Source: Nitrospirota bacterium (GTDB lineage: Bacteria; Nitrospirota; UBA9217). From it: 64,000 bases of DNA. A model generated the notes under the pieces. That model did no database searches. It was not told the DNA's origin and was given only the letters and a program-made list of their open reading frames with translations. The position numbers were made by a program, and so were the translations under genes. The stretch lies in NCBI GenBank assembly GCA_963755045.1, contig CAVWIL010000006.1, positions 74,664-138,663 on the forward strand, read 5' to 3'. Below, in pieces: positions 13,861 through 59,030 of this stretch (the first letter of the stretch is position 1; the number at the start of each line of letters is the position of its first letter).

Positions 13861-13881
13861 TGTGCTGAGTTAAAACTGCGC

Positions 13882-18651: not shown

Positions 18652-18744
18652 GTCCTGACCTCCTTCTGAACAATGACATATTGACAAATGTGGGTCTTCC
18701 GGGTTTTGTGTGGGTCGCTTTCTCTGTTCCTCACTCAGCGCATT

Positions 18745-19258
18745 TCACGATCCTATTTTTTTTCTGCACCCCAGTTCACAGCTCCGCGCCGGGCAAGATT
18801 GCCGATACTGAAACAATCCTTTTCGAGCATCGCAGCACTTCCCCTCACCCGGGGACGGGATCGGCCGTGTCTGCCTGGCTTTGTGGCAGCATCGGTCTTT
18901 TCAACCTTATCATGCTTGTGCGGGAACCTGTTCATGGGATGCAGGGGCTTCTGGAAATGCAAAGATACGGGTCTCTCCCCAAACCCCGCAGAGGTTAATT
19001 CGCCACTGAATGGGGTAGGCCTTTTAAGTTCTGCCGTTCCCCTGCGCCGGGTAGCTCTGAGCGAAAGACACGCATAGCAATGCTGCACAGATCATAGTTA
19101 CGAGAACAAGACAAGGCAGACACGGCCGAGCCCTTTTTTAAAGGGCGAGGGTGGAGTGATGCGAGTCCTGCATATCAGGGTGGAGGTACTGTACATCTTC
19201 CCTGCATGCTGCGTGGCCGAGTGATGAGCTGCCCAAAAAAACAATGCACACGTGGGAC
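18745..19258 (-). repeat. Mosaic foldback repeat, copy C (inverted relative to copy B)
   Basis: The reverse complement aligns to both ends of copy B (19258-19213 vs 13295-13340; 18745-18780 vs 13860-13825) and to the middle module. It has an internal inverted duplication (about 18823-18872 vs 19118-19168, GGCAGACACGGCCGA...GAGGGTGGAGTG). Confidence 0.8.
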
Positions 19259-21418: not shown

Positions 21419-21491
21419 ATAATATCCGTTCGTGGTGAGCCTGTCGAACCACAATCCAATTATTTAATCATCGGTCCAGCCCATACACTTT

Positions 21492-21857
21492 TTACGAAGA
21501 TTTTCCGCTGCACGCTTTACTCTTCGCAAGCCTGCTTATCTCTACCCAATCTCCACGGATCAATGCTTCTTTTTTCTTTCGGCTCCATCCTTTTATTTGC
21601 CGTTCGCAAATAAGTGCCTCTAACCGCGTTGGGAAATCTTGTGAGAATGACAAGGTAATTGGAAGCCGCGTAGACGTATAACCGTGATACTCACCTGACT
21701 GATGTTGGCTTATTCGAGTTTCCAGGTTATCGGTGTGACCTGTATAGTACGAGCCGTCGGAGCATTTTAGTATATAGACCCAGAATGACAAAAGCAGACT
21801 CCTGATAAAAGCTTGTCCTTCGACAAGCTCAGGACGAAGCGGATATAAGAACTGCAT
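21492..21857 (-). CDS. GIY-YIG nuclease family protein (UPF0213-like)
   Basis: It reads FWVYILKCSDGSYYTGHTDNLETRISQHQSGEYHGYTSTRLP...ERQIKGWSRKKKEALI. The ORF track starts at ATG 21857, but the first ~22 codons (…LRPELVEGQ…) are a repeat hairpin. A TTG at 21791 (MSFWVYIL) is the more plausible start. Confidence 0.75.
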   Translation of the reverse strand: MQFLYPLRPELVEGQAFIRSLLLSFWVYILKCSDGSYYTGHTDNLETRISQHQSGEYHGYTSTRLPITLSFSQDFPTRLEALICERQIKGWSRKKKEALIRGDWVEISRLAKSKACSGKSS

Positions 21858-21988
21858 TCAACATTATCCGTTCATGGTGAGCGTTCGACTACGCCCACGC
21901 CGACGTCTTATCAAACCACAAGCCTCTCCTTTGACAGTCTCAGGATAAACGGTTCTTCAAAAGAAAGAACTATGAGATAATTCCTTTT

Positions 21989-24358: not shown

Positions 24359-24472
24359 ACGGACTCCATGTAAAAATGCGGAGTGACGATGGACGTCCGC
24401 TCGCTTCGCTCGCTAGGACGATGGACGCGTACAACCATCACCTCGTCCGTCGTCCCTCGTCTCTCGCGCACC

Positions 24473-27450: not shown

Positions 27451-27533
27451 GTCATTCCCGCAACGATTCTCAGCGGGAATCCAGTCTTTAGCCTTGGTTT
27501 CCTGGATCCCCGATAGATGCATTCGGGTATGAC
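27451..27533. repeat. Paired palindromic units (GTCATTCCCGC...GCGGGAATCCAG / CTGGATCCCCG...CGGGTATGAC) in the acn-gltA spacer
   Basis: There are two hairpin units, at 27451-27484 and 27502-33, in mutually inverted orientation. The same unit types occur at 50170-50245 and, as variants, inside repeats A and B. Confidence 0.75.
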
Positions 27534-29652: not shown

Positions 29653-30018
29653 TCAACCCTCTTCCGATAGTTCCGTCCGGACAAGGGCGAGAATTGCTGA
29701 ATGGGGAACAATGAGGTATTTCTTGTCCTCGAACTCGATCTCCATTGATTGATCTTTGAGGAAGATGGCGTAATCACCATCGGCGGCCTGCAAGGGGAGG
29801 TACTTTACGTCCTTCTTGCCCGTTCTCCACGACTCGTCGGGGGTATTGTCCGGAATGGGATACCCCGGCCCTGTCTTCACCACATGGCCGCCCATGATCT
29901 TTTCCTTTTCCTTGACCGTGGGAGGAAGATAGAGCCCTGAAGGCGTTTTGTCCATCCGTTCATCAGGGTCAATGAGGACTCTGTCGCCGACGATGATGAG
30001 ATTTTTCTTCGTTTTCAT
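29653..30018 (-). CDS. GroES/Cpn10-like protein (second, divergent paralogue)
   Basis: MKTKKNLIIVGDRVLIDPDERMDKTPSGLYLPPTVKEKEKIMGGHVVKTGPG resembles the Cpn10 mobile loop plus beta core. There is an extra insert and an acidic tail. Confidence 0.55.
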   Translation of the reverse strand: MKTKKNLIIVGDRVLIDPDERMDKTPSGLYLPPTVKEKEKIMGGHVVKTGPGYPIPDNTPDESWRTGKKDVKYLPLQAADGDYAIFLKDQSMEIEFEDKKYLIVPHSAILALVRTELSEEG

Positions 30019-30043
30019 CCTGACCTCTTTGTTCCCGCCCATG

Positions 30044-31327
30044 TTATAAATTTCCGCGCAGTTTCTCCACGTTCAGGATCCGCTTCACCGCCAGCTCGTA
30101 GGCGGCCTTCCGCATCCGGCACTTTGTTTCGCGGCAGTGGTCATGGACATCATTGAACGCCGTGATCATGATCAGCTTCAGACGTTCAAGCACCTTTTCT
30201 TCCGGCCAGGGCTCGTTGCTCAGATTCTGGCTCCATTCGAAATAGCTCACCACGACACCGCCTGCGTTGGCAAGAATATCAGGGATTACCAGGATGTCCC
30301 TTTTGAAGAGAATGTCATCGGCTTGTGCGGTAAGGGGCGCGTTCGCGAGCTCGAGGACGATCTTTGCCTTCACGTCATGGGCGTTATTCGCGTCGAGCTG
30401 GTTCGAGAGGGCCGCCGGTATCAGGATTTCGCAGTCAACGGCAAGGAGTTCTGCAGGGGAAATGTTTTGTGCGTTTTCGAAACCGGCGACGCTGCCGGTC
30501 TTGTTCTTGTGATGTCTGAGCGAAGGGATATCGAGCCCGCCGGGGTCCATGATGGCGCCGTTCACGTCGCTCACGGCCACGATCGTGTAGCCCCAGTGAT
30601 GGAGCATGCGTGCGACATTCTTTCCCGCATTGCCGAACCCCTGGACCGCAACACGCGTCCCCTGCGCTTTCATGCCCAGCTCCTTCATGGCCTGCTCAAG
30701 CACGTGGATGCCGCCCAGCGCGGTCGAGTACCTGCGCGCCCTGATGCCGCCCAGCGCGGGCGGTTTTCCCGTGACCACGGCGGGAACATGCTCACGCTTG
30801 ATCCGCTCATACTCGTCGAGTATCCACGCCATGATCTGCTCGTCGGTGTACACGTCGGGCGCGGGGATATCCTTGAACGGCCCGATGTAGTCCGCAATGG
30901 CCCGGATGTACCCGCGCGTCACCAGTTCAAGATCGCGCTTCGAAAGGTCCAGGGGATTGACCGCAACACCGCCCTTTGCGCCGCCGAAGGGGATGTTCAC
31001 CACAGCGCACTTGAGCGCCATGAGGAAGGCAAGCTCACTCGCATGCTCTTCATCCATCGCGGGATGGAAGCGAATGCCGCCCTTGGCCGGGCCGCACGCG
31101 TCATTGTACTGCACACGGTAACCCGTGTACATCTGGGTCCTGCCCGTTGTCATCTTCACCGGAAAGCTCACGGTAAAGGACCGGCGCGGCGCGGACAGAA
31201 GGTCGAGTTCCTCCTGCGTGAGACCGAGGTCGGCGTAGATGGTCTGCAGCTCGGTCATGGCGAGGCTGCGAAGGTCTTTTTCGTCACGGTGGAGACGATC
31301 GTCGTTACGGTTCATGAAATGCCTCAT
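30044..31327 (-). CDS. gdh: Glutamate dehydrogenase (Glu/Leu/Phe/Val dehydrogenase family)
   Basis: The ORF is intact. It reads ...GYRVQYNDACGPAKGGIRFHP...FGGAKGGV...VAVQGFGNAGKNVA.... The start was chosen at MRHFMNRND (31327). The ORF track extends to 31369, into a hairpin repeat. Confidence 0.85.
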   Translation of the reverse strand: MRHFMNRNDDRLHRDEKDLRSLAMTELQTIYADLGLTQEELDLLSAPRRSFTVSFPVKMTTGRTQMYTGYRVQYNDACGPAKGGIRFHPAMDEEHASELAFLMALKCAVVNIPFGGAKGGVAVNPLDLSKRDLELVTRGYIRAIADYIGPFKDIPAPDVYTDEQIMAWILDEYERIKREHVPAVVTGKPPALGGIRARRYSTALGGIHVLEQAMKELGMKAQGTRVAVQGFGNAGKNVARMLHHWGYTIVAVSDVNGAIMDPGGLDIPSLRHHKNKTGSVAGFENAQNISPAELLAVDCEILIPAALSNQLDANNAHDVKAKIVLELANAPLTAQADDILFKRDILVIPDILANAGGVVVSYFEWSQNLSNEPWPEEKVLERLKLIMITAFNDVHDHCRETKCRMRKAAYELAVKRILNVEKLRGNL

Positions 31328-31336
31328 TGAAAATAC

Positions 31337-31422
31337 GTTCGGAGTCAGAGCAGTGAGTTCGTAGTTCAAACAATGGAGAGGATGGGTTTTTCACTCCGAA
31401 CTCCGAACTGACAACTCCGAAC
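31337..31422. repeat. Word hairpin (CCGAAC/GTTCGG words) between gdh and the malic enzyme gene
   Basis: The left arm GTTCGGAGTCAGAGCAGTGAGTTCGTAGTTC (31337-31367) is imperfectly complementary to CACTCCGAACTCCGAACTGACAACTCCGAAC (31392-31422). Confidence 0.6.
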
Positions 31423-31424
31423 AT

Positions 31425-32835
31425 TTATTTCGCAAGCCCCGTCTTCTTCGCGGCCTCGGCCACGGCAGCCGCCACTGACGCCACCACGGTGCGGTCGAAA
31501 ATGCTTGGGATAATATAGTCCTCGTGCAGCTCCCCGGTCTTAACCGTGTGGGCGATGGCCCTGGCAGCGGCGAGCTTCACCGCCTCGTTCACGCCGTGCG
31601 CGCGCACATCGAGCAATCCCCGGAACATGCCGGGGAAACACGAGCATATTGTTGATCTGGTTCGGGTAGTCCGACCGTCCTGTTGCCATGACCCGCACCA
31701 GCGGCATGGGCCTTCTCCGGCGAGATCTCGGGCTCGGGATTTGCGAGGGCGAATACGATCGGGCCTTTCGCCATCCTCTTGATGTCATGCGCGGTGATCA
31801 AATTCGGGGCCGACAACCCGATGAACACATGCGCGCCCTTCATTGCGTCGGATATGCTTCCCTTCACCTTTCGCGGGTTCGTGGCTTTTGCCAATGCGCT
31901 TTTATAGGGGTCCATTCCCTGCTTCCTGCCCGTGTACAGCGCGCCGGTCCTGTCGCACACGATAATGTCCCTGACCCCCGAGGACAGGAGGATCTTCGTG
32001 GTCGCCGAACCGGCCGCTCCCGCCCCGACGACCACGATCCTGAAATTTTTCAGGTCGCGCTTGAGCAGCCTCGAAACATTGATGAGCGCTGCCAGCACAA
32101 CCACGGCCGTGCCATGCTGGTCGTCATGGAACACCGGGATATCGAGCATACTTCCGGAGCCGGGATTCGATCTCGAAGCAGCGGGGCGCGGAAATGTCCT
32201 CGAGGTTGATGCCGCCGAAGGCCGGCGCAATGTTCTTGACCGTGGTCGATGATCTCGTCCACGTCTTTGGTCGCGAGCACGATGGGGAAAGGCGTCGATG
32301 TTCGCGAACTCCTTGAAGATCATGGCCTTGCCTTCCATGACCGGCAGCGCCGCCTCGGGCCCGATGTCGCCCAGGCCCAGGACCGCGGTGCCGTCGGATA
32401 CCACGGCAACGGCATTTCCCTTGATCGTGTAGCGGTACGCGTGCTCCGGTTGCTGATGGATGTCCATGCAGACCCGCGCCACGCCCGGCGTGTAGACCTT
32501 GGAAAGATCGTTCCGGTCGCGCACCGGCAGCTTGTTTTTGATCTCGATCTTTCCGCCCTCATGGGCCGAGAAGGTGCGGTCCGTGGACCCTGAGGACTTT
32601 CACGCCCGGCACGGTCTTGATGGCCTTTACGATCGACCGTTCGTGCTCCTCGTTGCGGGCGTTCACGGTGATGTCCCGGATGATCTTGCCCTTCTCCACG
32701 CGCACGATGTCCACAGCGCCCATGTCGCCGCCCGGCACCGCCTATGGCCGTGGCGATCCTGGCGAACATGCCGATGCGGTTCTCGATCTCGACCCGGATG
32801 GTGATGCTGTAGCTGGGACTGGGACTGGACTGCAT
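31425..32835 (-). CDS. NAD(P)-dependent malic enzyme with N-terminal ACT domain, multiple frameshifts
   Basis: The pieces span several frames. They are [32 protein letters not shown] (ACT), ...[79 protein letters not shown]..., ...[17 protein letters not shown]..., and a C-terminal ...[30 protein letters not shown]...*. Confidence 0.8.
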
Positions 32836-33141
32836 ACAAGTTCTTCATGGAGCATCTCCTTTGTTCTCTCATTATAGAGGCAATTTACCCGCATGGTCAA
32901 CCAGCTGGAAAAGAAATCGTGAGTGTTATTGTTCCAGGCTGAGTTTTCTCATAGAAAAATCACGTGCAAAATCCGGAACGAACGTGTATAATCGGGTCCA
33001 TGTATTTTGTAAATTATGATTCTTGCCCAGCTCTCTGCGCTCCAGGAAACAGTCATAGCTCGATGGCATTCATAGTACTTGAACGTTGCGATGAGTGCCT
33101 CTGCGAGACACTAGCATTAGTCCTTCTGGTGAAAAGAACTC

Positions 33142-34541
33142 ATGACCGACTACCGAATTGAAAAAGACTCCCTCGGTGAAGTCAAGGTCCCCGTGGACGC
33201 GCTCTACGGCGCGCAGACCCAGCGCGCCGTCCAGAACTTCCCCGTGAGCAGCATCCGGTTCCCCCGCGTCTTTATCCGCTGCTCTCGGGCTCATCAAGGC
33301 CGTGGCCGCCGAGGTAAACGCGGGACTGGGGCTGCTCGATCGCGAAGATCGCCGAGGCCATCCATCAGGCCGCCCTGGAAGTTGCGGACGGCAACTGGGA
33401 CGACCACTTCCCGCTCGATATCTTCCAGACCGGCTCGGCAACATCCACGAACATGAATGCCAACGAGGTGATCGCCAACCGCGCCACACAGATCCTCGGC
33501 GCCATCGGCAAAGCCCGTCCATCCGAACAACGACGTGAACATGGGCCAGTCCTCGAACGATGTCATCCCCGCTGCGATCCATGTGAGCGCCTATCTTGAA
33601 GTAAGCGAAGTGCTTCTGCCGGCATTCAAACACCTCCATGAAACGCTCAAAAAGCGTGAACTGGAATTTCGGGATATCGTCAAGACCGGCCGCACCCATC
33701 TGATGGACGCCATGCCGGTCCGGCTCGGCCAGGAGATCAGCGGCTGGGCTTATCAGGTGCAGCAGAGCATCGAACGGATCGAATCCTCCCTGCCCCGTCT
33801 CGCAAAGCTCGCCATCGGCGGCACTGCCGTGGGCACGGGATCAATGCGCCGAAGGATTTCGGCAAGATCGTCGCCCAGCAGGCTCGCCGGGCCGTACCAG
33901 TCTGCCCTTTGTTGAAACCGACAATCACTTCGCAGCCCAGGCGACCATGGACACGGCCGTGGAACTGTGCGGACAGCTGAAAGCTACTGCCTCTTCCTTC
34001 ATGAAAATGGCGAACGACCTGCGGCTGGATGAACAGCGGCCCGATCGCGGGGCTCGGAGAGATATCGCTGCCGGCGCTTCAGCCCGGTTCCAGCATCATG
34101 CCCGGCAAGGTGAACCCGGTGATGTGCGAGATGATGATGATGGTCTGCGCCCAGGTTACGGGGAACGATGCGGCCATTACGATCGCAACCAGCAGGGCAA
34201 TTTCGAGTTGAATGTCATGCTGCCGGTCATCGCCCACAACCTGCTCCAGTCCATCACCCTGCTCGGAAACGCATCCCGTCTCCTGGCGGACAAGGCGATC
34301 GCAGGCTTCACCGTGAACCGGGAACGCATCGACGGGACTGGTGGACAAGAACCCCATCCTCGTGACCGCGCTGAACCCGGTCATCGGCTATGACAAGGCC
34401 GCCCAGATCGCGAAGAAGGCGTATGCAGAGGGCCGGTCATTGAAGGATGTGGCAGCGGAGATGACGGATTTATCAAAGGAAGAACTGGACAAACTGCTTG
34501 ATCCGAGGAAGATGACGGAAGGCGGGGTCAATGATGCTTAG
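33142..34541 (+). CDS. fumC: Class II fumarate hydratase, many frameshifts
   Basis: It reads [36 protein letters not shown]..., then in shifting frames ...[16 protein letters not shown].., [18 protein letters not shown]..., [18 protein letters not shown]..., [11 protein letters not shown] (the SS loop), and ...[25 protein letters not shown]...*. Confidence 0.85.
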
Positions 34542-34774
34542 GGCAGAGCGCTAAGCTGGTCTTTCTATTCATTCTATACGTTGTGCGCCATGCGCCGTGC
34601 TCCATCCTCCATCCTTCATCCACTTCTCTCAGAGTCAGGGGCAAATCGTTTTCGTATTGCAAATAGGATTGCACTTCGGTTTACTGGTGCTGACCAACAA
34701 GATGTAACAATCATGAATAATAATAACACGAAAAGAAGTTTAATTAAAACCTCCTCAGGCATGAAATCCCTTCC

Positions 34775-35008
34775 TCAATCCCCAAAATGTTTCTTGAACA
34801 ATTCCTCCGCCAGCCTCGCACCTTCCGCGGACACGGTGACTGACTTTGCCTTGCTCTTCGGATTGCTGATGTACCCCTTCTCGTGCAGCCGGTTCATTGT
34901 TTCCCAGTCGAACCCCTTCCATGCCCTCACGCCATCCTTGCCTTTTTCCGTAACGAGGTACAGAAGCGCAAGCGTCATTTCGTCCACTTTGTCTTTGTTG
35001 TACGCCAT
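34775..35008 (-). CDS. DUF6429-like small protein
   Basis: This 77-aa ORF reads MAYNKDKVDEMTLALLYLVTEKGKDGVRAWKGFDWETMNRLHEKGYISNPKSKAKSVTVSAEGARLAEELFKKHF. The family call is from memory of the RAWKGFDW..MNRLHEKG motif. Confidence 0.55.
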   Translation of the reverse strand: MAYNKDKVDEMTLALLYLVTEKGKDGVRAWKGFDWETMNRLHEKGYISNPKSKAKSVTVSAEGARLAEELFKKHFGD

Positions 35009-35288
35009 AATGCCTCCTCATTCGCAGCGCGGCCTTTGTGACCTCCCTCTCCTTCAAGGAGAGGGCTGGGGTGAGGATGGGTTACTGCTGTGTCTACGAA
35101 ACCCATCCCCACCTTAATCCTCCCCTTGAAGGGGAGGAAACCCGACGCCTGCGTTGGTATTTACGTTGCGTTGTCCTGTCTCTCACTCTTCTAAGCTTCA
35201 AATCGTCATCTATCACACAGCATGAGCATTCCATCGTCACACTGAAAAATGCTCTGCTGATAGTTCCTGGGACCGTCGCGCACCGTTC

Positions 35289-35570
35289 TCAACTATCAAA
35301 AAGCAATTCAAATTCTCTTGGGGCGATGATGCGAATTCCATTGAAGACTTTCAAATGAAGAAGGTCCTTGTCTCCTGTGATAAGATAATCAGCGTCTGCT
35401 TCCAGAGCGCATGCCAGAACATTGTCGTCATCTTTGTCCCGGCAAACCCCTGATGGCCTTTCGGTAGGATGCACGATATCCTGGGCCGCCTCAGCGATCA
35501 ATGTCAGGGCGTTTTCCCGCTCCTGTTTTGTTGCTGAAAACTTTTTTGAAGGGATGCGTTCGAATTCGTG
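35289..35570 (-). pseudogene. PIN-family toxin (TIGR00305-like), C-terminal fragment lacking its N-terminal half
   Basis: It reads ...ILHEFERIPSKKFSATKQERENALTLIAEAAQDIVHPTERPSGVCRDKDDDNVLACALEADADYLITGDKDLLHLKVFNGIRIIAPREFELLFDS*. There is no PIN N-terminal DTN motif and no start. It is fused upstream to a DUF6429-like fragment. Confidence 0.55.
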
Positions 35571-35962
35571 AAGGATGAAGGGACACGTGCAGCCGGTTCA
35601 TCGTTTCCCAGTCGTAACCCTTTCCACGCCCGCGCGCCATCCCAATTATCAGCGTCGGGCTGTAGTCCGTTCGCTGACTTTAAGTGTTCGGTGAATGTCT
35701 GTATGAGATTGTAGGGGTATTTCTGCGGGTTTTCGAGGTTATCAAGTCCTAAGTCGACATCCAACTCCGACCAGTATAAATGATAAGCGTGAAGGAGTTG
35801 AACCTTTTGAATGGACTTTATCGTTTTTTCTTGGAAATAAGGATAGTCCTCGTAGCTTAAGAAATATTCCTTTTCCTTTACATAGAGCCATATGCCGAAG
35901 GGGGTTATATTTTCAACGCTTACTAAAATGTCTTTGCCAGGCTTTAAGGATTTCATTTCCAT
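35504..35962 (-). CDS. DUF2442-domain protein whose 3' end reads through into gene remnants
   Basis: The N-terminal ~90 aa (…VSVENITPFGIWLYVKEKEYFLSYEDYPYFQEKTIKSIQKVQLLHAYHLYWSELDVDLGLDNLENPQKYP) are DUF2442-like. The tail overlaps, in another frame, ARAWKGYDWETMNRLH, a second partial DUF6429 copy. Confidence 0.55.
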   Translation of the reverse strand: MEMKSLKPGKDILVSVENITPFGIWLYVKEKEYFLSYEDYPYFQEKTIKSIQKVQLLHAYHLYWSELDVDLGLDNLENPQKYPYNLIQTFTEHLKSANGLQPDADNWDGARAWKGLRLGNDEPAARVPSSFTNSNASLQKSFQQQNRSGKTP

Positions 35963-36155
35963 GCTCCTCTACGATTTTCTGAATCTCCCTCAACTGTTTC
36001 GGATTCAATCCATGATGCACGGCCAGCGACACGATGGGTTCCAGCCAGAATTTGGCCTCGCCGTTCTCGCAGGTGACATGAATATGGATTCTGTCCTCTT
36101 CATTTTACAGAAAATAAAATCGATACCCTTTTGCTCTGAAAATTGAAGGCGTCAT
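35913..36155 (-). pseudogene. DUF4160-family protein with an in-frame TAA
   Basis: It reads MTPSIFRAKGYRFYFL*NEEDRIHIHVTCENGEAKFWLEPIVSLAVHHGLNPKQLREIQKIVEEHGNEILKAWQRHFSKR*. The stop falls where the family has FySNE. It sits in the usual partner position upstream of DUF2442. Confidence 0.6.
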
Positions 36156-36218
36156 AATCGGGATTACTGTAGCACATTCAAAATGAGGTTTTCAATCAAT
36201 TTTCTTGACGATTTGTCC

Positions 36219-36247
36219 TTGTGCTGATTTGCTTGTTCAAGTATAAT
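36219..36247 (+). promoter_or_regulatory. Putative sdhCAB promoter
   Basis: TTGTGC (36219-36224) is followed by 17 nt and TATAAT (36242-36247). The AAGGAG RBS lies at 36261-36266. Confidence 0.4.
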
Positions 36248-36272
36248 TACGTCATTGCTAAAGGAGCCGGTC

Positions 36273-36936
36273 ATGTTCCCCACCTCCACCGTAGGCAAAA
36301 AAATATTGATGGCCTTCACAGGCCAGATGATGCTCCTGTTCGTCATCATCCATCTGCTCGGCAATACCACTGTCTATTTCCACAACCTCAATGCCTACGC
36401 CGCTGCTTTGCATGCCATGCCGGTCCTCGTTTGGATGTTCCGGCTTTTCATGTCCTTGATGCTCTGTCTCCATGTCTATCTCGGCATCGTGCTCACGCTG
36501 GAGAATAAGAAGGCAAAACCGCATGCCTATGCCGTGAACACCCAGCTCAGCGCCACGTTCGCCGGAAGGAACATGATCTGGACCGGCTCGCTCATCGCCG
36601 TGTTCCTGGTCTATCATTTGCTGCAATTCACGATCCAGGTCATCGACCCATCCGTCTCGGCGCTCAGGAACCCCGACGCCCTCGGCCGGCCCGATGTATT
36701 CATGATGGTGCTCAGCAGCTTCCGGCATGTCGGCATTGTTTCCTTCTATATTATATCCGTGGCCGCTCTGCTGCTGCATCTGTTCCACGGGATACAGAGC
36801 TCATTCCAGACCTGGGGCCTGAACAACGAAAGGACGTTTCCCATCATCACCAGGGGAGGCCAAATCGCCGCGACTGATCCTGTTCCTTGGATATGGTGCG
36901 ATACCGGTTGTGATCGTGATGGGAATAGTGAAATGA
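36273..36936 (+). CDS. sdhC: Succinate dehydrogenase/fumarate reductase cytochrome b subunit (b558, five-helix type), frameshift near the 3' end
   Basis: It reads MFPTSTVGKKILMAFTGQMMLLFVIIHLLGNTTVYF...HLLQFT...LLLHLFHGIQSSFQTWGL. The authentic tail ...LILFLGYGAIPVVIVMGIVK* (stop 36934-36936) is in another frame from about 36860. Confidence 0.75.
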
Positions 36937-37012
36937 TAAAAACGCATGGGCAGAGGGCAGAGGGTTCAACGCTATGCTCCATGCACCATGCCCTCTGCAC
37001 GGAGCATAATTG

Positions 37013-38942
<1,930 letters not shown>

Positions 38943-39085
38943 AGACAAGCACCAAATAGCAGGCACCAAATCCGCAAACAAGCACCAATTTCCAAACGAT
39001 GAAATCCAAAACGTTTTGGATATTTGCTCATTGTGATTTGAGCTTATTTGAGCTTCGAATTTGAGATTTGGAATTTTCTTTAGAG
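38943..39085. repeat. Word hairpin (CACCAAAT/ATTTGAG words) in the sdhA-sdhB spacer
   Basis: The C/A-rich arm is CAAGCACCAAATAGCAGGCACCAAATCCGCAAACAAGCACCAATTTCCAAAC. The apex is the perfect palindrome AAATCCAAAACGTTTTGGATATTT. The G/T-rich arm is GCTCATTGTGATTTGAGCTTATTTGAGCTTCGAATTTGAGATTTGG. Confidence 0.7.
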
Positions 39086-39091
39086 GTCTTC

Positions 39092-39832
39092 ATGAATCTA
39101 ACACTTTACGTCTGGCGTCAGAAAGGCCCCGAGGACAAAGGCCGGCTCGTCGCAGTACGAGGCGAAGGACATCCTCTCCGACATGTCCTTCCTCGAGATG
39201 CTCGACACCGTGAACGAGGGCCTGGTCAAAAAGGGAGACGAGCCCATCGCCTTCGACAGCGACTGCCGTGAGGGCATCTGCGGCATGTGCGGCCAGGTCG
39301 TGAACGGCGTGCCGCACGGGCCGCGGAAAAAACCACGGTCTGCCAGCTTCATATGCGCCATTTCAAGGACGGCGACACCATCTACATCGAGCCCTTCCGC
39401 GCCCGGGCATTCCCGGTGATCAAGGACCTGATCGTGGACCGGGGCGCCTTTGACAAGATCATCCAGGCTGGAGGCTATATTTCGGTCCATACCGGCGGCG
39501 TGCCTGACGGCAACGCGATCCTGGTCCCCAAGCATGACGCCGACACTGCCATGGATGCGGCCGAGTGCATCGGCTGCGGGGCCTGCGTCGCCGCCTGCCC
39601 GAACGGCTCGGCCATGCTCTTCACCGCGGCGAAGGTGTCGCACCTCGCCATGCTGCCCCAGGGCCGGGTCGAGGCGGCCCGCCGCGTCTGCGTCATGACC
39701 GAGGAGATGCTTCATCAGGGCTTCGGCAATTGCGGCAACCACTACGAATGCGAGGCCGTCTGCCCCAAGGGCATCAAGGTCAAGTTCATCGCGAAGCTGA
39801 ACCGGGAGTTCATCAAGGCGCAAATGCCGTGA
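39092..39832 (+). CDS. sdhB: Succinate dehydrogenase/fumarate reductase iron-sulfur subunit, at least 2 frameshifts
   Basis: It reads [20 protein letters not shown].., [37 protein letters not shown] (2Fe-2S), ...[16 protein letters not shown] (4Fe-4S)...[15 protein letters not shown]...*. Confidence 0.85.
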
Positions 39833-39952
39833 ATCATGAAGGCCGATTAAACATTGCAAATATATCGGTTTCCATGATATTTATTTGAGTAGGACAACAA
39901 CCGTTGCATGAGCACGAAGTCATCTCATCACAATCACAATAAGGAGGGCACC

Positions 39953-41147
39953 ATGAAACGTCTGTCACTCGTAATCGCAGTACTGGTTCGTCAAGCTCTT
40001 CTTCGTCACCCGTTGTTGGCTGCCGACACCTTTGACCTCACCATTCCGCTTCCGCTCACCGGCAAACAGGCGAAGTTCGGCGAGATCATGAAGCGGTCCT
40101 ACGAAATGGCCGCCGAAGAGATCAATGCCAAGGGCGGGGTCAAGGGCAAGAAGCTCGCCCTTTCCTTCGAGGACTCCACGGGCAAGCCGGAGACGGCCCG
40201 CGCCATCGTGGAAAAGCTGATCGACGTGAAGAAGCAGCCCATCATCGTGGGCGAGTATACCTCGTCCTGCGCCAAGGCCGTTGCCGCTGTTGCCGAGGAG
40301 CGCAAGACCCCCTACCTCGTCGTGGCGAGCGCCGATGACGACATCACCCAGCAGAACTACAAATATGTCTTCCGCCAGAACCAGGTCAATGCCCACTATG
40401 CCGACGCATTCGTCTCTTTCCTCAAGAAGTGGTGAAGCCCAAGACCATCGCGATCCTGTACGAGAGCTCGGCCTTCGGCACCTCGGGCGCCGATGCCATG
40501 GAGAAGGACGCGCAAAGAGCTCGGCATCAAGGTCGTGCTGAAGGAGAAGTTCGAGACCGGCGCCATCGACTTCAAGCCGCTCCTGTCCAAGGTGAAGGCG
40601 GCGCAGCCTGATGTCGTTTACACCGTCTCCTACGCGAACGAGGCCCAGCTCATCATGAAGCAGATCAAGGAAATCCGCATGGACGCCAAGCTCTATTGCC
40701 GGCGGCGCGGCCGGGTTCGCCATCCCCGAGTTCATCAAGGGCGCCCAGGATGCGGCCGAGTACGTGGTCAGCGCCACGCTCTGGACGCCCCAGGTCAAGT
40801 ATCCCGGCGCAAAGGAGTTCGCCGAAAAGTACAAGGCCAAATACGGAGACTATCCCTCCTATCACGGCGCCTCGGCCTATGCGGCGCATCTACGTGACCG
40901 CGGACGCCCTCGAGCGGGCAAAGGACTGGACCCAGGACGGCATCCGCGACGCGCTCAAGGCCACGAACATCAAGACCGCCTTCGGCCCCGGTCAAGTTCG
41001 AGGACAAGGAAGGCTACCAGAACCAGAACTTCCACGGAGACCCTCGCCATCCAGGTGCAGAAGGGCGAGTTCGAGACCGATCTGGCCCAAGAGCACGCAA
41101 GCAAGCCCTATGTCTTCCCGGTCCCGGCGTGGAAGGAGCGGAGATAG
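39953..41147 (+). CDS. livK: Branched-chain amino acid ABC transporter substrate-binding protein (LivK/LivJ family), multiple frameshifts
   Basis: The AAGGAGG RBS is followed by MKRLSLVIAVLV.... The domain fragments are IPLPLTGKQAKFGEIMKRSYEMAAEEINAKGGVKGKKLALSFEDSTGKPE, IIVGEYTSSCAKAVA, KPKTIAILYESSAFG, and ...QKGEFETDLAQEHASKPYVFPVPAWKERR*. Confidence 0.8.
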
Positions 41148-41150
41148 ATT

Positions 41151-41246
41151 CAATTGCGGATTTCGGATTGCGGATTGCGGAATGAAGCTGCAAGACAGCA
41201 GTAGTCCAGTTCTGCTCCGCACTCCGAATTCCGCACTCCGCAACTG
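41151..41246. repeat. Word hairpin (GCGGATT/AATCCGC words) in the livK-livH spacer
   Basis: CAATTGCGGATTTCGGATTGCGGATTGCGGAATG (41151-41184) is complementary in register to CTCCGCACTCCGAATTCCGCACTCCGCAACTG (41215-41246). Confidence 0.7.
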
Positions 41247-41261
41247 TATTTGAAGGTTTCC

Positions 41262-42197
41262 ATGACCGCTGTCCAGACTGAAGTCCTGCTCCAGACGCTC
41301 ATATCCGGCATTCTGCTCGGCGGGCTCTACGCCCTGATCGGCATCGGCATGACCATCATCATGGGCGTCATGAAGATCATCAACCTCGCCCACGGCGAGC
41401 TCATGATGGTGGGCATGTACATCGCCTATGTCCTGTTCTCGCTATTTCCACATCGACCCCTATCTGTCGATCTTCATCGCCGCGCCGGCCCTGTTCCTGC
41501 TCGGCATCGGGACTCCAGAAGTATCTGATCAATCCCGGTGCTCAAGGTGGACTCCATCCTGCCCGAGAACCAGGTGATCCTCACGGTCGGCATCGGCATG
41601 GTGCTGGCGAACCTCGCGACGATCATCTTCAAGTCCGATTACCGCCAGACGCCCGTGTCCTACGGCACCAAGGCCTGGTACCTCGCCGACCTCTGGAAGA
41701 ACGCGCCCATCGAGCTGTCGCTCTCCGTTGCCCTGGAGCGTCTCCTTCGTCGTCTGCCGTGGCGATCACCGCGGGTCTCTGGTTCTTCCTGACCAAAACG
41801 GACACGGGCAAGTCCATCCGCGCCACGGCCCAGGACAAGGATGCGGCGCTGCTCATGGGCGTGAACGTGGGACGGATGCGGGTGATCACCTTCGGGCTCG
41901 GGCTCGGCCCTCGTGGGCGCGGCCGGCTGCCTCTTCATCCCGATCTATTACATTTATCCCGACATCGGCGGGCAGTTCACGCTGATCGCCTTCGTCATCA
42001 CCATCCTGGGCGGCCTCGGCTCCACCGTGGGGGCGATCATCGGCGGCCTGATCCTCGGTCTCTTCGAATCCCTCACCGCCACCTACATCGGCATGGGCTG
42101 GGCGCCGGTGGGACGGTTCGTCATCTTCGTCGCCGTGCTGATCTTCATTCCCGGCGGCGTGGCATCGCTGCTCAAGAGCAGAAAGTTCGGGAAATAA
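41262..42197 (+). CDS. livH: Branched-chain amino acid ABC transporter permease LivH, frameshifted
   Basis: It reads [51 protein letters not shown]..., ...[14 protein letters not shown]..., and a C-terminal ...[40 protein letters not shown]...*. Confidence 0.8.
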
Positions 42198-42302
42198 CGA
42201 TCAACAGTCTTGACACTGATTTAAACTGAGTTCTATGATGAAAGTAAGCACGTGCATCGCCTCTATCATACAAATCGGCCTTATCTGTGTCCAAGGTTTT
42301 TC

Positions 42303-43252
42303 ATGAAAAAATTTTTCCTTCATAGCGCTGGTGCTGCTGGCCCTCCTTCCCCTCCTGGGCCTGAACAGCTATCTGATGCACATCCTGATCCTGGTCATCA
42401 TGTGGTCCGTGATCGGCATGGCCTGGAACCTCCTGTCGGCGGCTACTGCGGCCAGGTCTCCTTCGGCCATGCCGCCTTTTTCGGCGTCGGGGCCTACACC
42501 GCCGGGATGCTCTACAGCAAGCTCGGCATCTCGGGCTGGTGGGGCCTGCCCGCGAGCATCATCGTCGGTCACTCGTCTTCGCGCTGGTCATCGGCTACAT
42601 CTGCCTGCGGCTGCGCGGCCCCTACTTCGCCCTGGCCACGCTGGCCATGGGCGTCATCCTCCGGATCGTGGCGGAGAACCTCGCGGGCTTCACCGGCGGA
42701 GATCTGGGCATCATGATCCGCGAACGAACCTGGGTCGAGAAAACCTGGTACTACTACATCATCCTGGCCATCGCCGCCGTGACCTATCTTGCTCGTCAAG
42801 AAGGTCATCGATTCCAAGCTCGGCTACTACTTCGTGGCCATCCGCGAGGACCAGGACGCGGCGGAATCCCTCGGCATCAACACCACCCTGTACAAGACCA
42901 TTGCGCTCGTGCCTGAGCGCCGTGCTCACCGGCTTCGCCGGCGCCTTTTACACGAACTACATGGGCTACATCGATCCCAAGGTCGTCTTCGCGCTCCACG
43001 ACATATCCATCGTCACGATCATGGTCGTCATGGTCGGCGGCGTGGCGACCTTCTGGGGGCCGATCGTGGGCGCGGTCATCATGGTGCTCCTGGCGGAGCT
43101 GATCCGGTCCATCCCGATGCTCGGCACGGCGCACCAGACGTTCTTCGGCATCCTGCTGATCGTGATCATCATCTTCCTGCCCAACGGCATCGTGGGCGAC
43201 TTTCCGAAACTGAAGAAACTGGTCGGTCTCGGCACGAGGAGGCCCGTCATGA
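42303..43252 (+). CDS. livM: Branched-chain amino acid ABC transporter permease LivM, frameshifted
   Basis: It reads MKKFF.., ...GYCGQVSFGHAAFFGVGAYTAGMLYSKLG..., LRLRGPYFALATLAMGVILRIV..., YFVAIREDQDAAESLGINTTLYK.., and ...GGVATFWGPIVGAVIMVLLAELIR.... The stop overlaps the livG ATG (ATGA at 43249-43252). Confidence 0.8.
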
Positions 43253-43977
43253 GCCTCCTCGAGGTCAAAAAGGTCTCCCGGTTCTTCGGCGGCATCGCCG
43301 CGATCAAGGACGTTTCCTTCAGCGTCGCGGAAGGGCGAGATCCTCGGGCTCATCGGTCCGAACGGCGCCGGCAAGACAACGCTGTTCAACGTCGTGAACG
43401 GATTCTATCGTCCCTCGCGCGGCGAGGTGTTTTTCAAGGGCGAGACGATCTCCGGCCTGCAAGCCGCACCAGATCTGCAAACGCGGCATGGCCAGGACCT
43501 TCCAGGTCGTGAAGCCGCTCCAGCGCATGACCGTGCTCGACAACGTCATCGCGTCGGCATTTCTTCGTGCGAAGGACAAGACGCGAGGCCGAGGAGATCG
43601 CGCGCGGAGATCCTCGAGTTCACCGGCCTGTATGACGACCGGGACGTGATATCGAAGGGCCTGCCGCTCGGGAAGCGCAAAGCGGCTCGAGATCGCCCGG
43701 GCGCTGGCAACGCAGCCCGACGATCCTGCTCCTTGACGAATCCTTCGCCGGCCTGAACCCGTCGGAGCTGGACGAGTCCATCGGCATCATCCGCAAGATC
43801 AAGGAACGGGGCATCACGATCATGATCATCGAGCACCACATGAAGGTGATCATGTCCATATCCGACCGGATCGTGGTCCTGAACTACGGGGAGAAGATCG
43901 CCGAGGGCACCCCGCTGGAGATCCGGAACAATCCCCTGGTCATCGAGGCGTATCTGGGAGAGGCGCAGAGTGCTTGA
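43249..43977 (+). CDS. livG: Branched-chain amino acid ABC transporter ATP-binding protein LivG, frameshifted
   Basis: It reads MSLLEVKKVSRFFGGIAAIKDVSF.., GLIGPNGAGKTTLFN (Walker A), ...LLLDESFAGLNP (Walker B)...ITIMIIEHHMKVIMSISDRIVVLNYGEKIAEGTPLEIRNNPLVIEAYLG...*. Confidence 0.8.
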
Positions 43978-44675
43978 GGTCCGGAACATAGACGTATTCT
44001 ACGGCGACGTCCAGGTGCTCTGGGACGTTTCCTTTGAGGTGAAACAGGGCGAGGTCGTCGCGCTCATCGGCGCGAACGGCGCGGGCAAATCGACGACCCT
44101 CAAGACCATCTCCGGGCTTCTCCGGCCCCGCAAGGGCGGGATGATCGTTCAACGACACACCGATCCACACCGTCGAGCCATTCAGGCTCATCGAGCTGGG
44201 CATCGCCCACTGCCCCGAGGCGCGGCGGCTCTTTGTCGAGATGACCGTCGAGGAGAACCTCGACATGGGCTCGCTCCGGGGCGAGGCGAGGCAGCAGCGC
44301 GAGAAGACCAAGGAGATGGTATTCGGCCTCTTTCCCCGGCTCAGGGAGCGCAGAAGACAGCCTGCCGGGACGCTGTCCGGCGGCGAGCAGCAGATGGTGG
44401 CGATCGGCAGAGGGCTGATGGCGATGCCGAAGCTCATCATGTTCGATGAGCCATCGCTGGGGCTGGCGCCGATCCTGGTGCGGGAGATCTTCGACGTCAT
44501 CAAAAAGATCCGGGAGCAAGGGACCACGGTCCTGATCGTGGAGCAGAATGTGAAGCAGACCCTGGCGATCGCCGACCGCGCCTATGTGCTGGAAAGCGGC
44601 AGGGTGGTGATGCAGGGAACCGGTGCGGCCTTGCTGAACGATGAACATGTAAAGACGGCGTATCTGGGTGTATAG
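43970..44675 (+). CDS. livF: Branched-chain amino acid ABC transporter ATP-binding protein LivF, one frameshift
   Basis: The start is GTG: MLEVRNIDVFYGDVQVLWDVSFEVKQGEVVALIGANGAGKSTTLKTISGLL. This is followed by ...LSGGEQQMVAIGRGLMAMPKLIMFDEPSLGLAP...VEQN...AYLGV*. The shift is near 44140. Confidence 0.85.
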
Positions 44676-44700
44676 CCGGACACATGGCGCCCGGAAAGCT

Positions 44701-44806
44701 CAAGCACCAAATGACAAATCTCAAATAAACTCCAAACTCCCATCACCCAATTGAAACTTTGGTCATTGGATATTATTTGGGTTTAAGATTTCGGATTTGA
44801 AATTTG
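44701..44806. repeat. Word hairpin (CACCAAAT / ATTTGG words) downstream of livF
   Basis: The C/A-rich arm CAAGCACCAAATGACAAATCTCAAATAAACTCCAAACTCCCATCACCCAATTGAAAC opposes the G/T-rich arm TTTGGTCATTGGATATTATTTGGGTTTAAGATTTCGGATTTGAAATTTG. Confidence 0.65.
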
Positions 44807-44825
44807 TATTACCCCGGAGGTAGCC

Positions 44826-45467
44826 ATGTACGTTTCCGACTGGATGACGAAAAAGGTCTTTACCGTAGAGCCCGACGATTATCTCTCCATGCTTTATCGG
44901 TGATGAAGGAAAAGGGCGTCAAGCACCTCCTGTTGTCAAGGGCAGCAGCTGAAAGGCATCGTCTCGGACCGGGACATCAAGGAGTACAGCCCTTCAAAGG
45001 CCACATCCCTCGACATCTACGAACTCCACTATCTCCTGGCAAATACCAGGATCAAGGAGATCATGAGTACAAAGGTCGTAACCACTACCTCCGAAACACC
45101 CGTCGAAGAAGCCGCCATGATCATGCTGGACCAGAATATCGGCTGCCTCCCGGTGCAGGATAACGGGAACCTCGTCGGCATCATTTCCGACAAGGACATC
45201 TTTCACGCCCTGGTGGATATCACCGGGGTCAGACATGGCGGCAACCGGGTCTGCGTGACGATCGAGGACAGGCCGGGCTCCATAAGGGAAGTTGCAGACA
45301 TCATCCGAGAATACGGCTTCCACCTCCAGGGGATACTCACCTCCTACGAGGGAGTGAAGGACGGTTATCGAAAGGTGGTCATCAGAACAAGTGGTAAGGG
45401 AGATTTCACCGGTCTCAAATCGAAGATCGAGGGTGCTTTCAAGACCTGCCAGATCAGCAAGGGATAG
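44826..45467 (+). CDS. CBS-pair plus ACT-like domain protein (AcuB-like), frameshifted
   Basis: It reads MYVSDWMTKKVFTVEPDDYLS.., ...VKHLPVVKGQQLKGIVSDRDIKEY.. (shifted), then ORF 45063-45467: MSTKVVTTTSETPVEEAAMIMLDQNIGCLPVQDNGNLVGIISDKDIFHALVDITG...CVTIEDRPGSIREVADIIREYGF. Confidence 0.7.
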
Positions 45468-45587
45468 CAGCGAGAAGGTCATCAGCACCGGCTTATGCCC
45501 GTTCAGGCAAGATGTACGGGCAGGTATCGATCAAAACAACGCTAGGAGGAGGTTATAACGCTGGATTTCTTCCTTATCGGAGAAGGG

Positions 45588-45833
45588 GTGCAGCTTGCGA
45601 AAAAAGGGGTGGCCAAAACCATATCAATGGAGCTGGAAGGCAAGCAGGTCAATGTGGGTGAACTGCTGGAAATGATCAGTGAGTTTGGGGTGAAATTTTA
45701 CGTCTGCCACGCATTCATGCCGGACTTTGGTGTTACAAAAGAAGATCTTATCGAAAATGCAGAAGTAAAGTCGAGTTCATATCTCGGCGAACTGCTCCTG
45801 CATGGCTACATCCCTTTTTCGCTTGCCATGTAA
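45588..45833 (+). pseudogene. DsrE/DrsE-family protein, apparently N-terminally truncated
   Basis: The C-terminal two-thirds is present (…LDFFLIGEGVQLAKKG...ELLEMISEFGVKFYVCHAFMPDFGVTKEDLIENAEV...). The in-frame upstream sequence hits TAG after 14 codons with no ATG/GTG/TTG. About 35-40 N-terminal residues of the family are missing. Confidence 0.45.
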
Positions 45834-45950
45834 TAATCGAAAGCTCCCTCAAGGCTTTTTCTGATGCGTCTTTTTCCTGCATGGAAGGATCGTCCGGATC
45901 AGCTGTAATACGTGATGTTGCTCTCCATTATAACAACCTGCTCTATATGT

Positions 45951-45990
45951 AAAAAAGCCGGGAATCACAATCCCGGCTTTTATCTTTTTT
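45951..45990. terminator. Bidirectional rho-independent terminator between the DsrE-like gene and fbp
   Basis: Stem GCCGGGA (45957-45963) pairs with TCCCGGC (45971-45977). An A6 run lies upstream and T-runs downstream. Confidence 0.65.
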
Positions 45991-46019
45991 GCGTCCTCTC
46001 CGGCTAGAACATTGCCTCT

Positions 46020-49859: not shown

Positions 49860-50128
49860 CGAGCTCTCCTCTCTGTACTTCCAGGGCCTAACCAGTTGTT
49901 ATTGAACGGAAACCGTCCGTAAAACCGAAAGTCCGATATTAGTGGGATGGATCCCCGAGACAATATCACAGTGAACACAACTCGTGGCAGCATTATGAAT
50001 ATATTCGTTGACTGCTTAATTGTCAAAGGGTTTTAATACTATTGCAAGGTAAGAAAATGCCCTCTTCCCGAGAAGGGAGAGGGCATGACAATATTTCCCG
50101 ACTGAGTGGTGAGGGAGAAATTACGGTT

Positions 50129-50272
50129 CATTCGTATAAAAGTTGAAGGACGAGAAATATCACTAAGAACTGGATTCCCGCTTTCGCGGGAATGACTATA
50201 AAACAAGCAGTTAGGAATGTCATCCCCGTGAAAACGGGGATCCAGAGGTTCTTTTCAACTTGAATACGAATG
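50129..50272. repeat. ~145-nt composite foldback immediately downstream of pckG
   Basis: The outer arms are CATTCGTATAAAAGTTGAAGGA (50129-) and its complement (ending 50272). They enclose CTGGATTCCCGCTTTCGCGGGAATGAC (50170-50196) and GTCATCCCCGTGAAAACGGGGATCCAG (50219-50245). Confidence 0.75.
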
Positions 50273-50285
50273 AGGCGAAATTAAA

Positions 50286-58944: not shown

Positions 58945-59030
58945 TTCACCACAGAGGCATGGAGGGCACAAAGAATAAATCCTTTGGCTTCAACCTGCTT
59001 CCCTCCGTGACTCAGTGTCTCCGTGGTGAA
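58945..59030. repeat. Word hairpin (CACAGAGG/CCTCCGTG words) between purH and the ferritin-like gene
   Basis: TTCACCACAGAGGCATGGAGGGCACAAAG (58945-58973) opposes CTTCCCTCCGTGACTCAGTGTCTCCGTGGTGAA (58998-59030). Confidence 0.65.

Follow-up and report, generated by a model that had tools for sequence, protein, structure and literature searches.

Why should long palindromic sequences stand between the genes of one operon? The question was raised by a 64,000-nt stretch (hereafter, the window) of a soil Nitrospirota metagenome-assembled genome (MAG; assembly GCA_963755045.1, contig CAVWIL010000006.1, positions 74,664 to 138,663 of the forward strand), in which the spacer between sdhA and sdhB (38943-39085; hereafter, the index element) and a number of other spacers are filled by hairpin-like elements. 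A preliminary description of the window listed eight of them and offered, as possible roles, mRNA processing or stability, differential expression within operons, and a self-propagating element. We found that the arms of these elements are built of 7-nt units, that their content at orthologous junctions is gained, lost and replaced, and that their words recur in distant phyla. The explanation that we favor, with a probability of about one half, is that they belong, without a gene of their own, to a poorly described class of palindromic inserts with heptamer arms. On this view they are neither classical terminators nor assembly artefacts; cistron junctions tolerate them, and in mRNA they probably act as substrates of RNase III.

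Heptanucleotide repeats are the commonest long simple repeats in many bacterial genomes. When the window was matched to itself at fixed lags (an array being defined by 15 matches in 21 positions), 10 arrays were found at lag 7, compared to 0.5 in block shuffles. Among the lags that are not multiples of three, enrichment was seen only at 7 (and 14), with 0-1 arrays at lags 4, 5, 8, 10, 11 and 13; lags 6, 9, 12 and 15 are raised by coding periodicity alone. Seven was also the best self-match lag in 15 of 20 arms. The degenerate short words of the preliminary description are thus real, but their length is seven, and this heptamer nature had been overlooked. Four units per arm were found at livK–livH, pfp and moaA–moaC, and in the right arms at malic–gdh and aldDH–alsS; for 28 GCGGATT hairpins from many phyla, in which the right arm was unconstrained by the search pattern, this arm consists of four units in 17 cases and of five in 6. 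Loci of Nitrospirota relatives (loci from other genomes are given by our L numbers) contain 38 lag-7 arrays per 490 kb, three of which are runs of N, versus 5-16 for lags 5, 8, 10 and 11. Loci of other phyla that were chosen by the same gene showed no clear lag-7 excess. Longer arrays exist: a perfect GTGAAAC array of at least 14 units, adjoining a run of N, is present in Niastella sp. OAS944 (L127:820-1010), and a perfect GTGAATC array of 7 units in L160. Both use words of the pfp hairpin of the window, and the number of units can therefore far exceed four in some genomes.

Several other measures were of limited use. The density of direct and inverse 6-mer repeats was unusable, being confounded by GC-rich coding repeats and by a CRISPR array in one Nitrospirota relative (L011:1-4400, repeat ATATTCCTCAGCGATATGCTGAGGCCTCATTGAAGC, about 2 kb upstream of pfp), and non-Nitrospirota loci scored higher. 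RNALfold across the window did not discriminate, as every segment folds, and blastn of the window against its own reverse complement yielded only near-perfect palindromes and long dispersed repeats. A dynamic-programming scan for hairpins entered the linear regime under lenient scoring and under strict scoring recovered the best elements only (35046, 50170, 41145, 61118).

All eight elements of the preliminary description are present, each filling a spacer directly after a stop codon, and three more were added: the tktN–tktC and sdhC–sdhA hairpins and a half-element after fumC, for which a complementary arm was looked for and not found (Table 1). Fold stability was compared to dinucleotide shuffles using RNAfold. 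The arm test measures how well one arm matches the other arm's reverse complement, and its null model comes from shuffling the two arms independently; complementarity was significant (p ≤ 0.01) in 9 of 10 elements, the exception being the index element. Loops are 0-55 nt long and contain no open reading frame (ORF). The fold of livK–livH consists of 6-bp helices with a single mismatch per 7 bp. The preliminary description had stressed that the vocabulary differs from element to element. Vocabularies are indeed many, but the livF element belongs to the vocabulary class of the index element, with the 12-mer CAAGCACCAAAT common to both (38946 and 44700), and each vocabulary is a dispersed family found across phyla.

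Table 1. Heptamer elements of the window, in order of position. Fold z, RNAfold compared to dinucleotide shuffles; arm test, complementarity of the two arms.
Element	Position	Strand	Words or units (left / right arm)	Fold z	Arm test	Lag-7 array
tktN–tktC hairpin	6093-6168	-	CACGGAT / ATCCGTG words	-4.2	z 5.8	
aldDH–alsS-like hairpin (flanks by Pfam)	24377-24470	-	right arm: CCTCGTC CGTCGTC CCTCGTC TCTCGCG	-3.2	p=0.01	24437-24472
malic enzyme–gdh hairpin	31331-31426	-	GTTCGGA... / CTCCGAA CTCCGAA CTGACAA CTCCGAA	-3.9	z 5.9	31388-31423
solo array (half-element) after fumC	34575-34628	+	GCGCCAT GCGCCGT GCTCCAT CCTCCAT CCTTCAT, directly 3' of the stop codon	not significant		strongest class of run
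sdhC–sdhA hairpin	36944-36991	+	GCATGGGCAGAGGGCAGAGGG / GCTCCATGCACCATGCCCTCTGC	-0.9	z 3.5, p=0.006	36964-37006
sdhA–sdhB hairpin (index element)	38943-39085	+	degenerate NCCAAAT-type / ATTTGAG-type	-1.6	z 1.4, p=0.15	
livK–livH hairpin	41148-41249	+	GCGGATT TCGGATT GCGGATT GCGGAAT / CTCCGCA CTCCGAA TTCCGCA CTCCGCA (4+4)	-5.5	z 8.0	
livF–next gene hairpin	44701-44806	+	CACCAAAT GACAAAT CTCAAAT ... / ... ATTTGGG ... GATTTGAAATTTG	-1.9	z 3.5	
rubrerythrin/ferritin-like–purH hairpin	58945-59030	-	TTCACCACAGAGGCATGGAGG... / ...GTCTCCGTGGTGAA	-2.9	z 4.6	
pfp hairpin, convergent spacer	61116-61206	.	GTGAAAC GTGAATC GTGAAC GTGAGAA / GTTTCAC CCTTCAC GATTCAC GTTC	-3.9	z 6.3	
moaA–moaC hairpin	63239-63357	+	CCCGAAAT CCGAAAAT CTAATAT CTAAAC / GTTTAGA ATTTCGA AATTCGT ATTTCGT ATTTG	-2.6	z 6.1	

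The index element is the weakest hairpin of the set and its arm complementarity is not significant. It is nonetheless non-random, because its apex is a perfect 18-nt palindrome (ATCCAAAACGTTTTGGAT, 39004-39021), because it has the strongest switch from A+C to G+T in the window (0.49, standard deviation 0.087; centered at 39013, at the apex, with the element after livF ranking second), and because its words are one-sided, with four CAAA[TC] on the left side only and five [GA]TTTG on the right side only. The right arm terminates in TTTGAGATTTGGAATTTTC; the Shine-Dalgarno sequence of sdhB, AGAGG (39081-39085), and then its ATG (39092) stand at the 3' side of the element. The element is eroded and possibly composite. 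A perfect palindromic apex, which had been said to be frequent, is clear in this element only, and was overstated as a general feature.

The placement of the elements is uniform. Ten of the 11 lie in co-directional spacers, one lies in a convergent spacer and none in a divergent one, although this sample is small. Subunit genes of one enzyme or system are often parted (tktN–tktC, sdhC–sdhA–sdhB, livK–livH, moaA–moaC), which bears out the proposal of an architectural family located inside operons; for example, the tktN–tktC hairpin separates the two halves of a split transketolase, 6233-6961 and 5131-6099, both on the minus strand and assigned by Pfam. The elements start 0-30 nt past a stop codon and end just before the Shine-Dalgarno sequence of the next gene. 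Among 27 paired hairpins from other phyla, the array starts 1-9 nt after a stop codon in 10 cases; ORF-orientation classification around these hairpins was too noisy to use. Every element lies between protein-coding genes, and none is inserted in a 23S rRNA helix. At the gathering score of Rfam, no element was matched in the window, where the sole match is a tRNA (7727-7810). Fold stability shows no bias between the two strands, and in the three AT-rich elements it is the antisense strand that forms the more stable structure; therefore, nothing indicates optimization as sense-strand RNA. A search of public reads for the window sequence returned no run with more than 7% of its words and no RNA run. 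Three other readings were rejected: G-quadruplexes, because there are no G-tracts (most words, i.e., GCGGATT, ATTTGAG, CTCCGAA, GTGAAAC and CACAGAG, contain no run of three or more G); integron attC sites, because these contain no heptamers and the elements of the window are flanked by core operons; and a CsrA sponge, because GGA motifs lie inside stems and are missing from several vocabularies.

The most conventional explanation of a hairpin after a stop codon is a rho-independent terminator, acting in one or both directions. The pfp element fills the gap between the pfp stop codon (61109) and that of the gene on the minus strand (about 61205), a convergent spacer in which relatives carry canonical terminators, and, in the AT-rich family, the constant order of the arms (C-arm first) makes the 3' arm rich in U whichever strand is read. 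However, most of the elements lie inside operons between subunit genes, none has a short GC-rich stem followed by a U-tract, the stems are 30-70 nt long, imperfect and often AT-rich, and the GC-rich families have no U-rich 3' arm. A terminator consensus scan of 30000-46000 called canonical terminators elsewhere (e.g., 45953-45981); within elements, only sub-fragments of the index element were called. These results agree with the earlier view that the elements are not ordinary terminators, and we consider termination a very improbable explanation.

It should be noted that the window contains many 1-nt frameshifts in conserved genes (sdhA, sdhB, livK and others; 31425-45467), and sdhA (37010-38942) is readable only across three frames. 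The frameshifts fit errors of a long-read assembly rather than pseudogenes, and some of the 6- or 8-nt units and mismatches may therefore be errors (miscalled homopolymers). Error-prone assembly or sequencing could be suspected of having produced the elements themselves. This explanation is refuted, and we give it practically no weight: the same architecture and words are present in Illumina/MEGAHIT MAGs and in isolate genomes from many projects, and because several of the element-carrying relatives are Illumina assemblies, the elements are not long-read artefacts.

The comparison of orthologous spacers that the preliminary description had called for yielded both filled and empty sites at sdhA–sdhB and moaA–moaC. 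The pfp protein of the window (59622-61109) is at most 84% identical to the proteins of other soil and groundwater Nitrospirota MAGs. The sdhA–sdhB junction is commonly tight (TAAATG; ...AGGAGTTATAAATAATG) in Geobacter, in Thermodesulfovibrionia and in many metagenomic relatives (SdhB 77-87% identical). In the window and its nearest relatives (SdhB 84-92% identical), the spacers are 52-320 nt long and their contents differ. Apart from the window, inserts are present in L201/L401, L202, L203, L406, L407, L412 and L414: L202 carries a CACGGAG/CTCCGTG hairpin, L201 and L401 a longer insert that begins with CACGGAG/CACAGAG units, and the other five carry other hairpins. Relatives with SdhB 89-92% identical hold different inserts at this site. 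Farther afield, an independent GGATGAA-type hairpin occupies the junction in L248 (Terriglobia), and a different palindromic insert in L267 (Kiritimatiellales). In genomes with the tight junction, the Shine-Dalgarno sequence of sdhB, AGGAG, lies within the last codons of sdhA (window 38925-38942 compared to L404, L405, L408-L411 and L415). In genomes with an insert, this AGGAG has in most cases degenerated to AGAAG or CGAAG, while the ATG is preceded by a new GAGG at the 3' end of the insert. It follows that the spacer is old in this clade and that its content has been turned over.

At moaA–moaC, 13 relatives have a gap of only -6 to 36 nt, whereas in 12 others the two genes are 64-278 nt apart. 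Related AT-rich arms are found in the window, L001, L002, L009, L012, L020 and L024, and in two of these (L002:4235-4495 and L009:9447-9726) a second, unrelated hairpin family is nested at the apex of the AT-rich hairpin. A similar nesting, of CAGAG-type arms inside GCGGATT arms, was observed in L297. At the site after pfp, relatives show one of three arrangements: a canonical terminator, another heptamer hairpin, or a terminator with heptamer arms on either side.

These junctions bear on the possibility that the elements are regulatory stem-loops selected by the host, in which a block to 3'-5' exonucleases or attenuated read-through sets the ratios of operon proteins in the manner of repetitive extragenic palindromic (REP) sequences and bacterial interspersed mosaic elements, with the structure under selection and the sequence drifting. 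The elements do stand in spacers between subunit genes, including the classic junction of binding protein and permease, livK–livH; every downstream gene has its own Shine-Dalgarno sequence just past the stem; the related moaA–moaC element is present in at least seven genomes whose pfp is 76-84% identical to that of the window; and REP elements, like Correia elements (PMC2649163), change mRNA stability. Conversely, there is no fold bias toward the sense strand, the index element is barely a hairpin, many close relatives keep the tight junction, and content at a single site is replaced rather than conserved. Moreover, equimolar partners, such as sdhA/sdhB and the transketolase halves, need no differential expression, and a working terminator can lie between the arms in relatives, which would seldom leave the outer stem a chance to form in RNA. 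A conserved host function is thus hard to reconcile with content that is replaced, with the number of tight junctions and with the missing sense-strand bias, and we consider this explanation rather unlikely.

Recurring arrays (GCGGATT; ATTTGRR; TTCACCACAGAG...) were found at other loci in at least 10 phyla, in multiple copies and with fixed chirality. The vocabularies that are dispersed in many phyla include GCGGATT, ATTTGRR/YYCAAAT, CACAGAG, CTCCGAA, GTGAAAC and others. For the livK–livH array, the 26-nt pattern CGGATTKCGGATTKCGGATTGCGGAA was found at 120 or more loci, compared to a chance expectation that we calculated as ~1e-3 in 596 Gb. These loci represent at least 10 phyla (Nitrospirota, Chloroflexota, Acidobacteriota, Verrucomicrobiota, Planctomycetota, Gemmatimonadota, Bacteroidota, Thermodesulfobacteriota and others), and individual MAGs can contain more than one copy. 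In the relative L032, the array recurs nearly unit for unit between two permease genes. Where a complementary arm was found among the matches listed, the G-arm of GCGGATT comes first in 30 cases versus 1, and the C-arm of the ATTTG family in 18 versus 1. The 17-mer TTTGAGATTTGGAATTT gave at least 120 matches versus ~70 by chance; as this count is not clearly above expectation, we relied on the context of the matches, of which 85 of the 120 among those listed fall within ATTTG arrays. Words such as CAAGCACCAAAT recur in Flavobacteriaceae and Gammaproteobacteria. The termini of the ferritin–purH element match CACAGAG/CACGGAG-type elements elsewhere, and its outer terminus, TTCACCAC[AG]GAG, is common to L202, L032, L081 (Pyrinomonadaceae) and L314. 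Near 4992-5060 of L314, four AATCCGC units come directly after four CACAGAG-type units, a chimeric junction of the left arm of one vocabulary with the right arm of another.

The same data can be set against a purely mutational origin, in which slippage makes a heptamer array and template switching at a hairpin inverts it, with neither mobility nor function. Units are more alike within than between arms, so that GCGGATT of livK–livH faces ACTCCGC, with a mismatch every 7 bp; solo arrays are common and loops are unconserved; and heptamers are reported to be the most abundant long simple-sequence repeat in many bacteria, with polymerase slippage as the proposed cause (summarized in PMC4679880). 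Slippage alone, however, is expected to give a broad distribution of unit numbers, whereas the observed numbers peak sharply at four; and it would not be expected to produce chirality of 30:1 and 18:1, the same words and outer termini at non-orthologous loci of unrelated phyla, or different inserts at one site in relatives as close as those at sdhA–sdhB. Pure slippage is thus at odds with the sharp four-unit peak, with the chirality and with the termini held in common, and a by-product of mutation is, in our judgment, unlikely.

Some of the dispersed arrays are associated with a gene. In L298 and L296, GCGGATT and AATCCGC arms about 400 nt apart enclose ORFs of the PF05635 family (23S_rRNA_IVP, 23S rRNA intervening-sequence protein) (E = 2e-18 and 3e-14, respectively), and a third PF05635 gene lies near a GCGGATT array in L365. 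With about three such cases among at least 120 loci, gene-less hairpins outnumber gene-bearing ones by at least 10 to 1 in this sample. A wider reading can be put forward tentatively, and we hold it to be clearly less probable than the explanation stated at the outset: heptamer-armed hairpins might constitute a single, bacteria-wide class of mobile palindromic cassettes with arms of 4 × 7 nt, in which each vocabulary would be a lineage with its own chirality and termini, colonizing stop-start junctions of operons and rRNA helices. The PF05635 protein, a four-helix bundle, would be the sequence-specific partner that recognizes its own array, the abundant gene-less hairpins, among them the 11 of the window, would be non-autonomous derivatives, and RNase III cutting of the stems would re-wire the stability of operon mRNA.

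The narrower reading, of gene-less inserts tolerated at cistron junctions, can be represented as the following sequence of steps. An element class that is mobile, or at least recurrently generated, would insert two inverted arrays of about four 7-nt units each (arms of ~28 nt) with a short loop. Units within an arm would be kept alike by slippage; the homogenization within arms fits this, and it matches the preliminary suggestion of an element that regenerates arms from words. Inserts would be tolerated at cistron junctions because the base of the hairpin joins the stop codon and the next ribosome-binding site. They would be transcribed with the operon, and their long stems would probably be cut by RNase III, by analogy with heptamer-stemmed rRNA intervening sequences; such cutting would break the coupling between cistrons and change how stable individual mRNA segments are. 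We infer that the insert is selfish or near-neutral and that these effects on expression are incidental to it rather than the reason why it exists. Among the roles offered earlier, the self-propagating one comes closest to the evidence of filled and empty sites, replacement, nesting and multi-copy arrays across phyla; a role in mRNA processing, mRNA stability or differential expression drew no support from the data.

Several observations weigh against this reading. No transposase, target-site duplication or actual movement was seen, and mobility is therefore unproven; in particular, no target-site duplication is visible between filled and empty moaA–moaC and sdhA–sdhB sites, where the flanks are too diverged for a clean comparison. 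Following GCGGATT arrays, no conserved loop or inner motif was found beyond continuation of the units, so that identity across phyla could be convergence on favored heptamers. Under a strict criterion, 93 of 124 arrays have no partner arm. Among the matches listed, PF05635 is carried by ~3 of 120 GCGGATT loci, and neither the window nor the Nitrospirota loci gave a PF05635 match in tblastn with two query proteins. Cutting by RNase III is no more than an analogy. Finally, the persistence of the related moaA–moaC element across genomes with pfp 76-84% identical could mean host selection.

The closest likeness is to elements of Xanthomonas and Nostoc. In Xanthomonas, GGGAATC arrays prefer four units, are enriched between aligned ORFs near stop and start codons, are transcribed, and form 70-75 inverted (convergent) pairs per genome that are capable of forming stem-loops (Rehm et al. 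2015, PMC4692102); the heptamer of Nostoc is GGGGAYT (PMC4692102). The window likewise has tandem 7-nt units, about four per array, close inverted pairs, and aligned or convergent spacers. An important distinction is that one word with a G-tract, read as a G-quadruplex former, is dominant in those genomes, whereas the window has at least seven vocabularies in 64 kb, mostly without G-tracts; in addition, PMC4692102 makes no link to gain or loss at coupled junctions or to PF05635. The heptamers of cyanobacterial short tandemly repeated repetitive sequences are named alongside as part of the same family of systems. In Geobacter metallireducens, a non-pathogenic bacterium of the environment, intergenic heptanucleotide elements of four or five units (GGACCGG, MTYCTGA) were described, one class being drawn as a hairpin (Aklujkar et al. 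2009, PMC2700814); these were annotated as putative regulator-binding sites and compared within one genome, and their words differ from those of the window. TAACTGA arrays are known upstream of start codons (MacGregor 2015, PMC4679880).

Intervening sequences of rRNA resemble the elements in another respect. The one in helix 45 of the Coxiella burnetii 23S rRNA has a 28-bp stem of terminal inverted repeats with tandem heptamers, bears a PF05635-family ORF, and is excised by RNase III (Warrier et al. 2016, PMC4990558). The likeness of such ORF-bearing sequences of Coxiella and Leptospira lies in inverted heptamer arms of ~28 bp, and the arms around the PF05635 genes of L298 and L296 match the vocabulary of livK–livH. 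The differences are that the intervening sequences occupy rRNA helices and contain an ORF, whereas the elements of the window occupy mRNA spacers and have ORF-free loops, and that excision by RNase III was shown for the rRNA intervening sequence only.

Two families of mobile or putatively mobile palindromes are more distant. REP sequences, and their hairpin-forming doublets (REPINs) with REP-associated tyrosine transposases (RAYTs), are extragenic, multi-copy hairpins of inverted units, often within operons, which are proposed to be non-autonomous mobile DNA that affects mRNA (PMC3116915, PMC3337134). However, REPs are single GC-rich palindromes of 20-40 nt with a conserved GTAG head and are near-identical within a genome, whereas the arms in the window are tandem heptamers of many vocabularies; no common, GTAG-like head was found among the 11 elements, and the copies are not near-identical. 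Correia elements and other miniature inverted-repeat transposable elements are inserts of ~100-150 bp with inverted ends, which are co-transcribed and change the expression of adjacent genes (PMC2649163; PMC3184786). According to PMC2649163, RNase III binds the Correia hairpins, with either cleavage or protection as the outcome. Correia elements are bounded by defined 26-nt terminal inverted repeats and have both a conserved core and a TA target duplication; no core, no target duplication and no correspondence in heptamer periodicity was seen in the window.

Inverted heptanucleotide arrays between genes are thus already in print, piecemeal and unexplained. What is new is the presence of at least seven vocabularies in 64 kb, the turnover of elements at core-operon junctions that were once coupled, and the match of vocabulary to PF05635-bearing cassettes. 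The literature search found no paper that links the PF05635/TIGR02436 protein family to heptamer hairpins in operons. To our knowledge, about 30 years have passed without an accepted function for either the rRNA intervening sequences or the large PF05635 family. If the elements are mobile, they would represent a kind of minimal mobile DNA that has been overlooked and that disrupts the translational coupling of operon genes; if they are selected by the host, they would represent a general means of operon tuning. In either case, gene callers and predictors of operons and terminators currently ignore these elements, and spurious ORFs result in MAG annotation.

The window also contains repeats of other kinds. 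Its best hairpin (35046-35137; 92 nt, -60 kcal/mol, z -6.5), which shows no 7-nt periodicity, belongs to a type (CCTCTCC..GGAGAGGG / GGGGTGAGG) that many genomes from the environment contain; fumC and sdhC flank the small accessory islet in which it lies. Foldbacks of palindromic units of the GTCATTCCCGC..GCGGGAATCC type, a separate, non-heptameric repeat family, are found downstream of the phosphoenolpyruvate carboxykinase gene (50119-50282) and in a spacer adjoining the aconitase gene (27451-27533). A minus-strand ORF (21492-21857) is bracketed by hairpin repeats that contain GGTGAGCCTGTCGAACCAC (21415-21494 and 21858-21950), and this region, 21415-21950, looks like a different system, of a nuclease plus repeats. 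Past the tRNA, a lower-GC accessory region is partitioned by inverted repeats: copies of ~0.26 kb at 13610-13870 and 18733-18965, which are 81% identical, and a perfect 45-nt inverted pair at 13295-13339 and 19214-19258, with 11723-11840 listed in the same repeat set.

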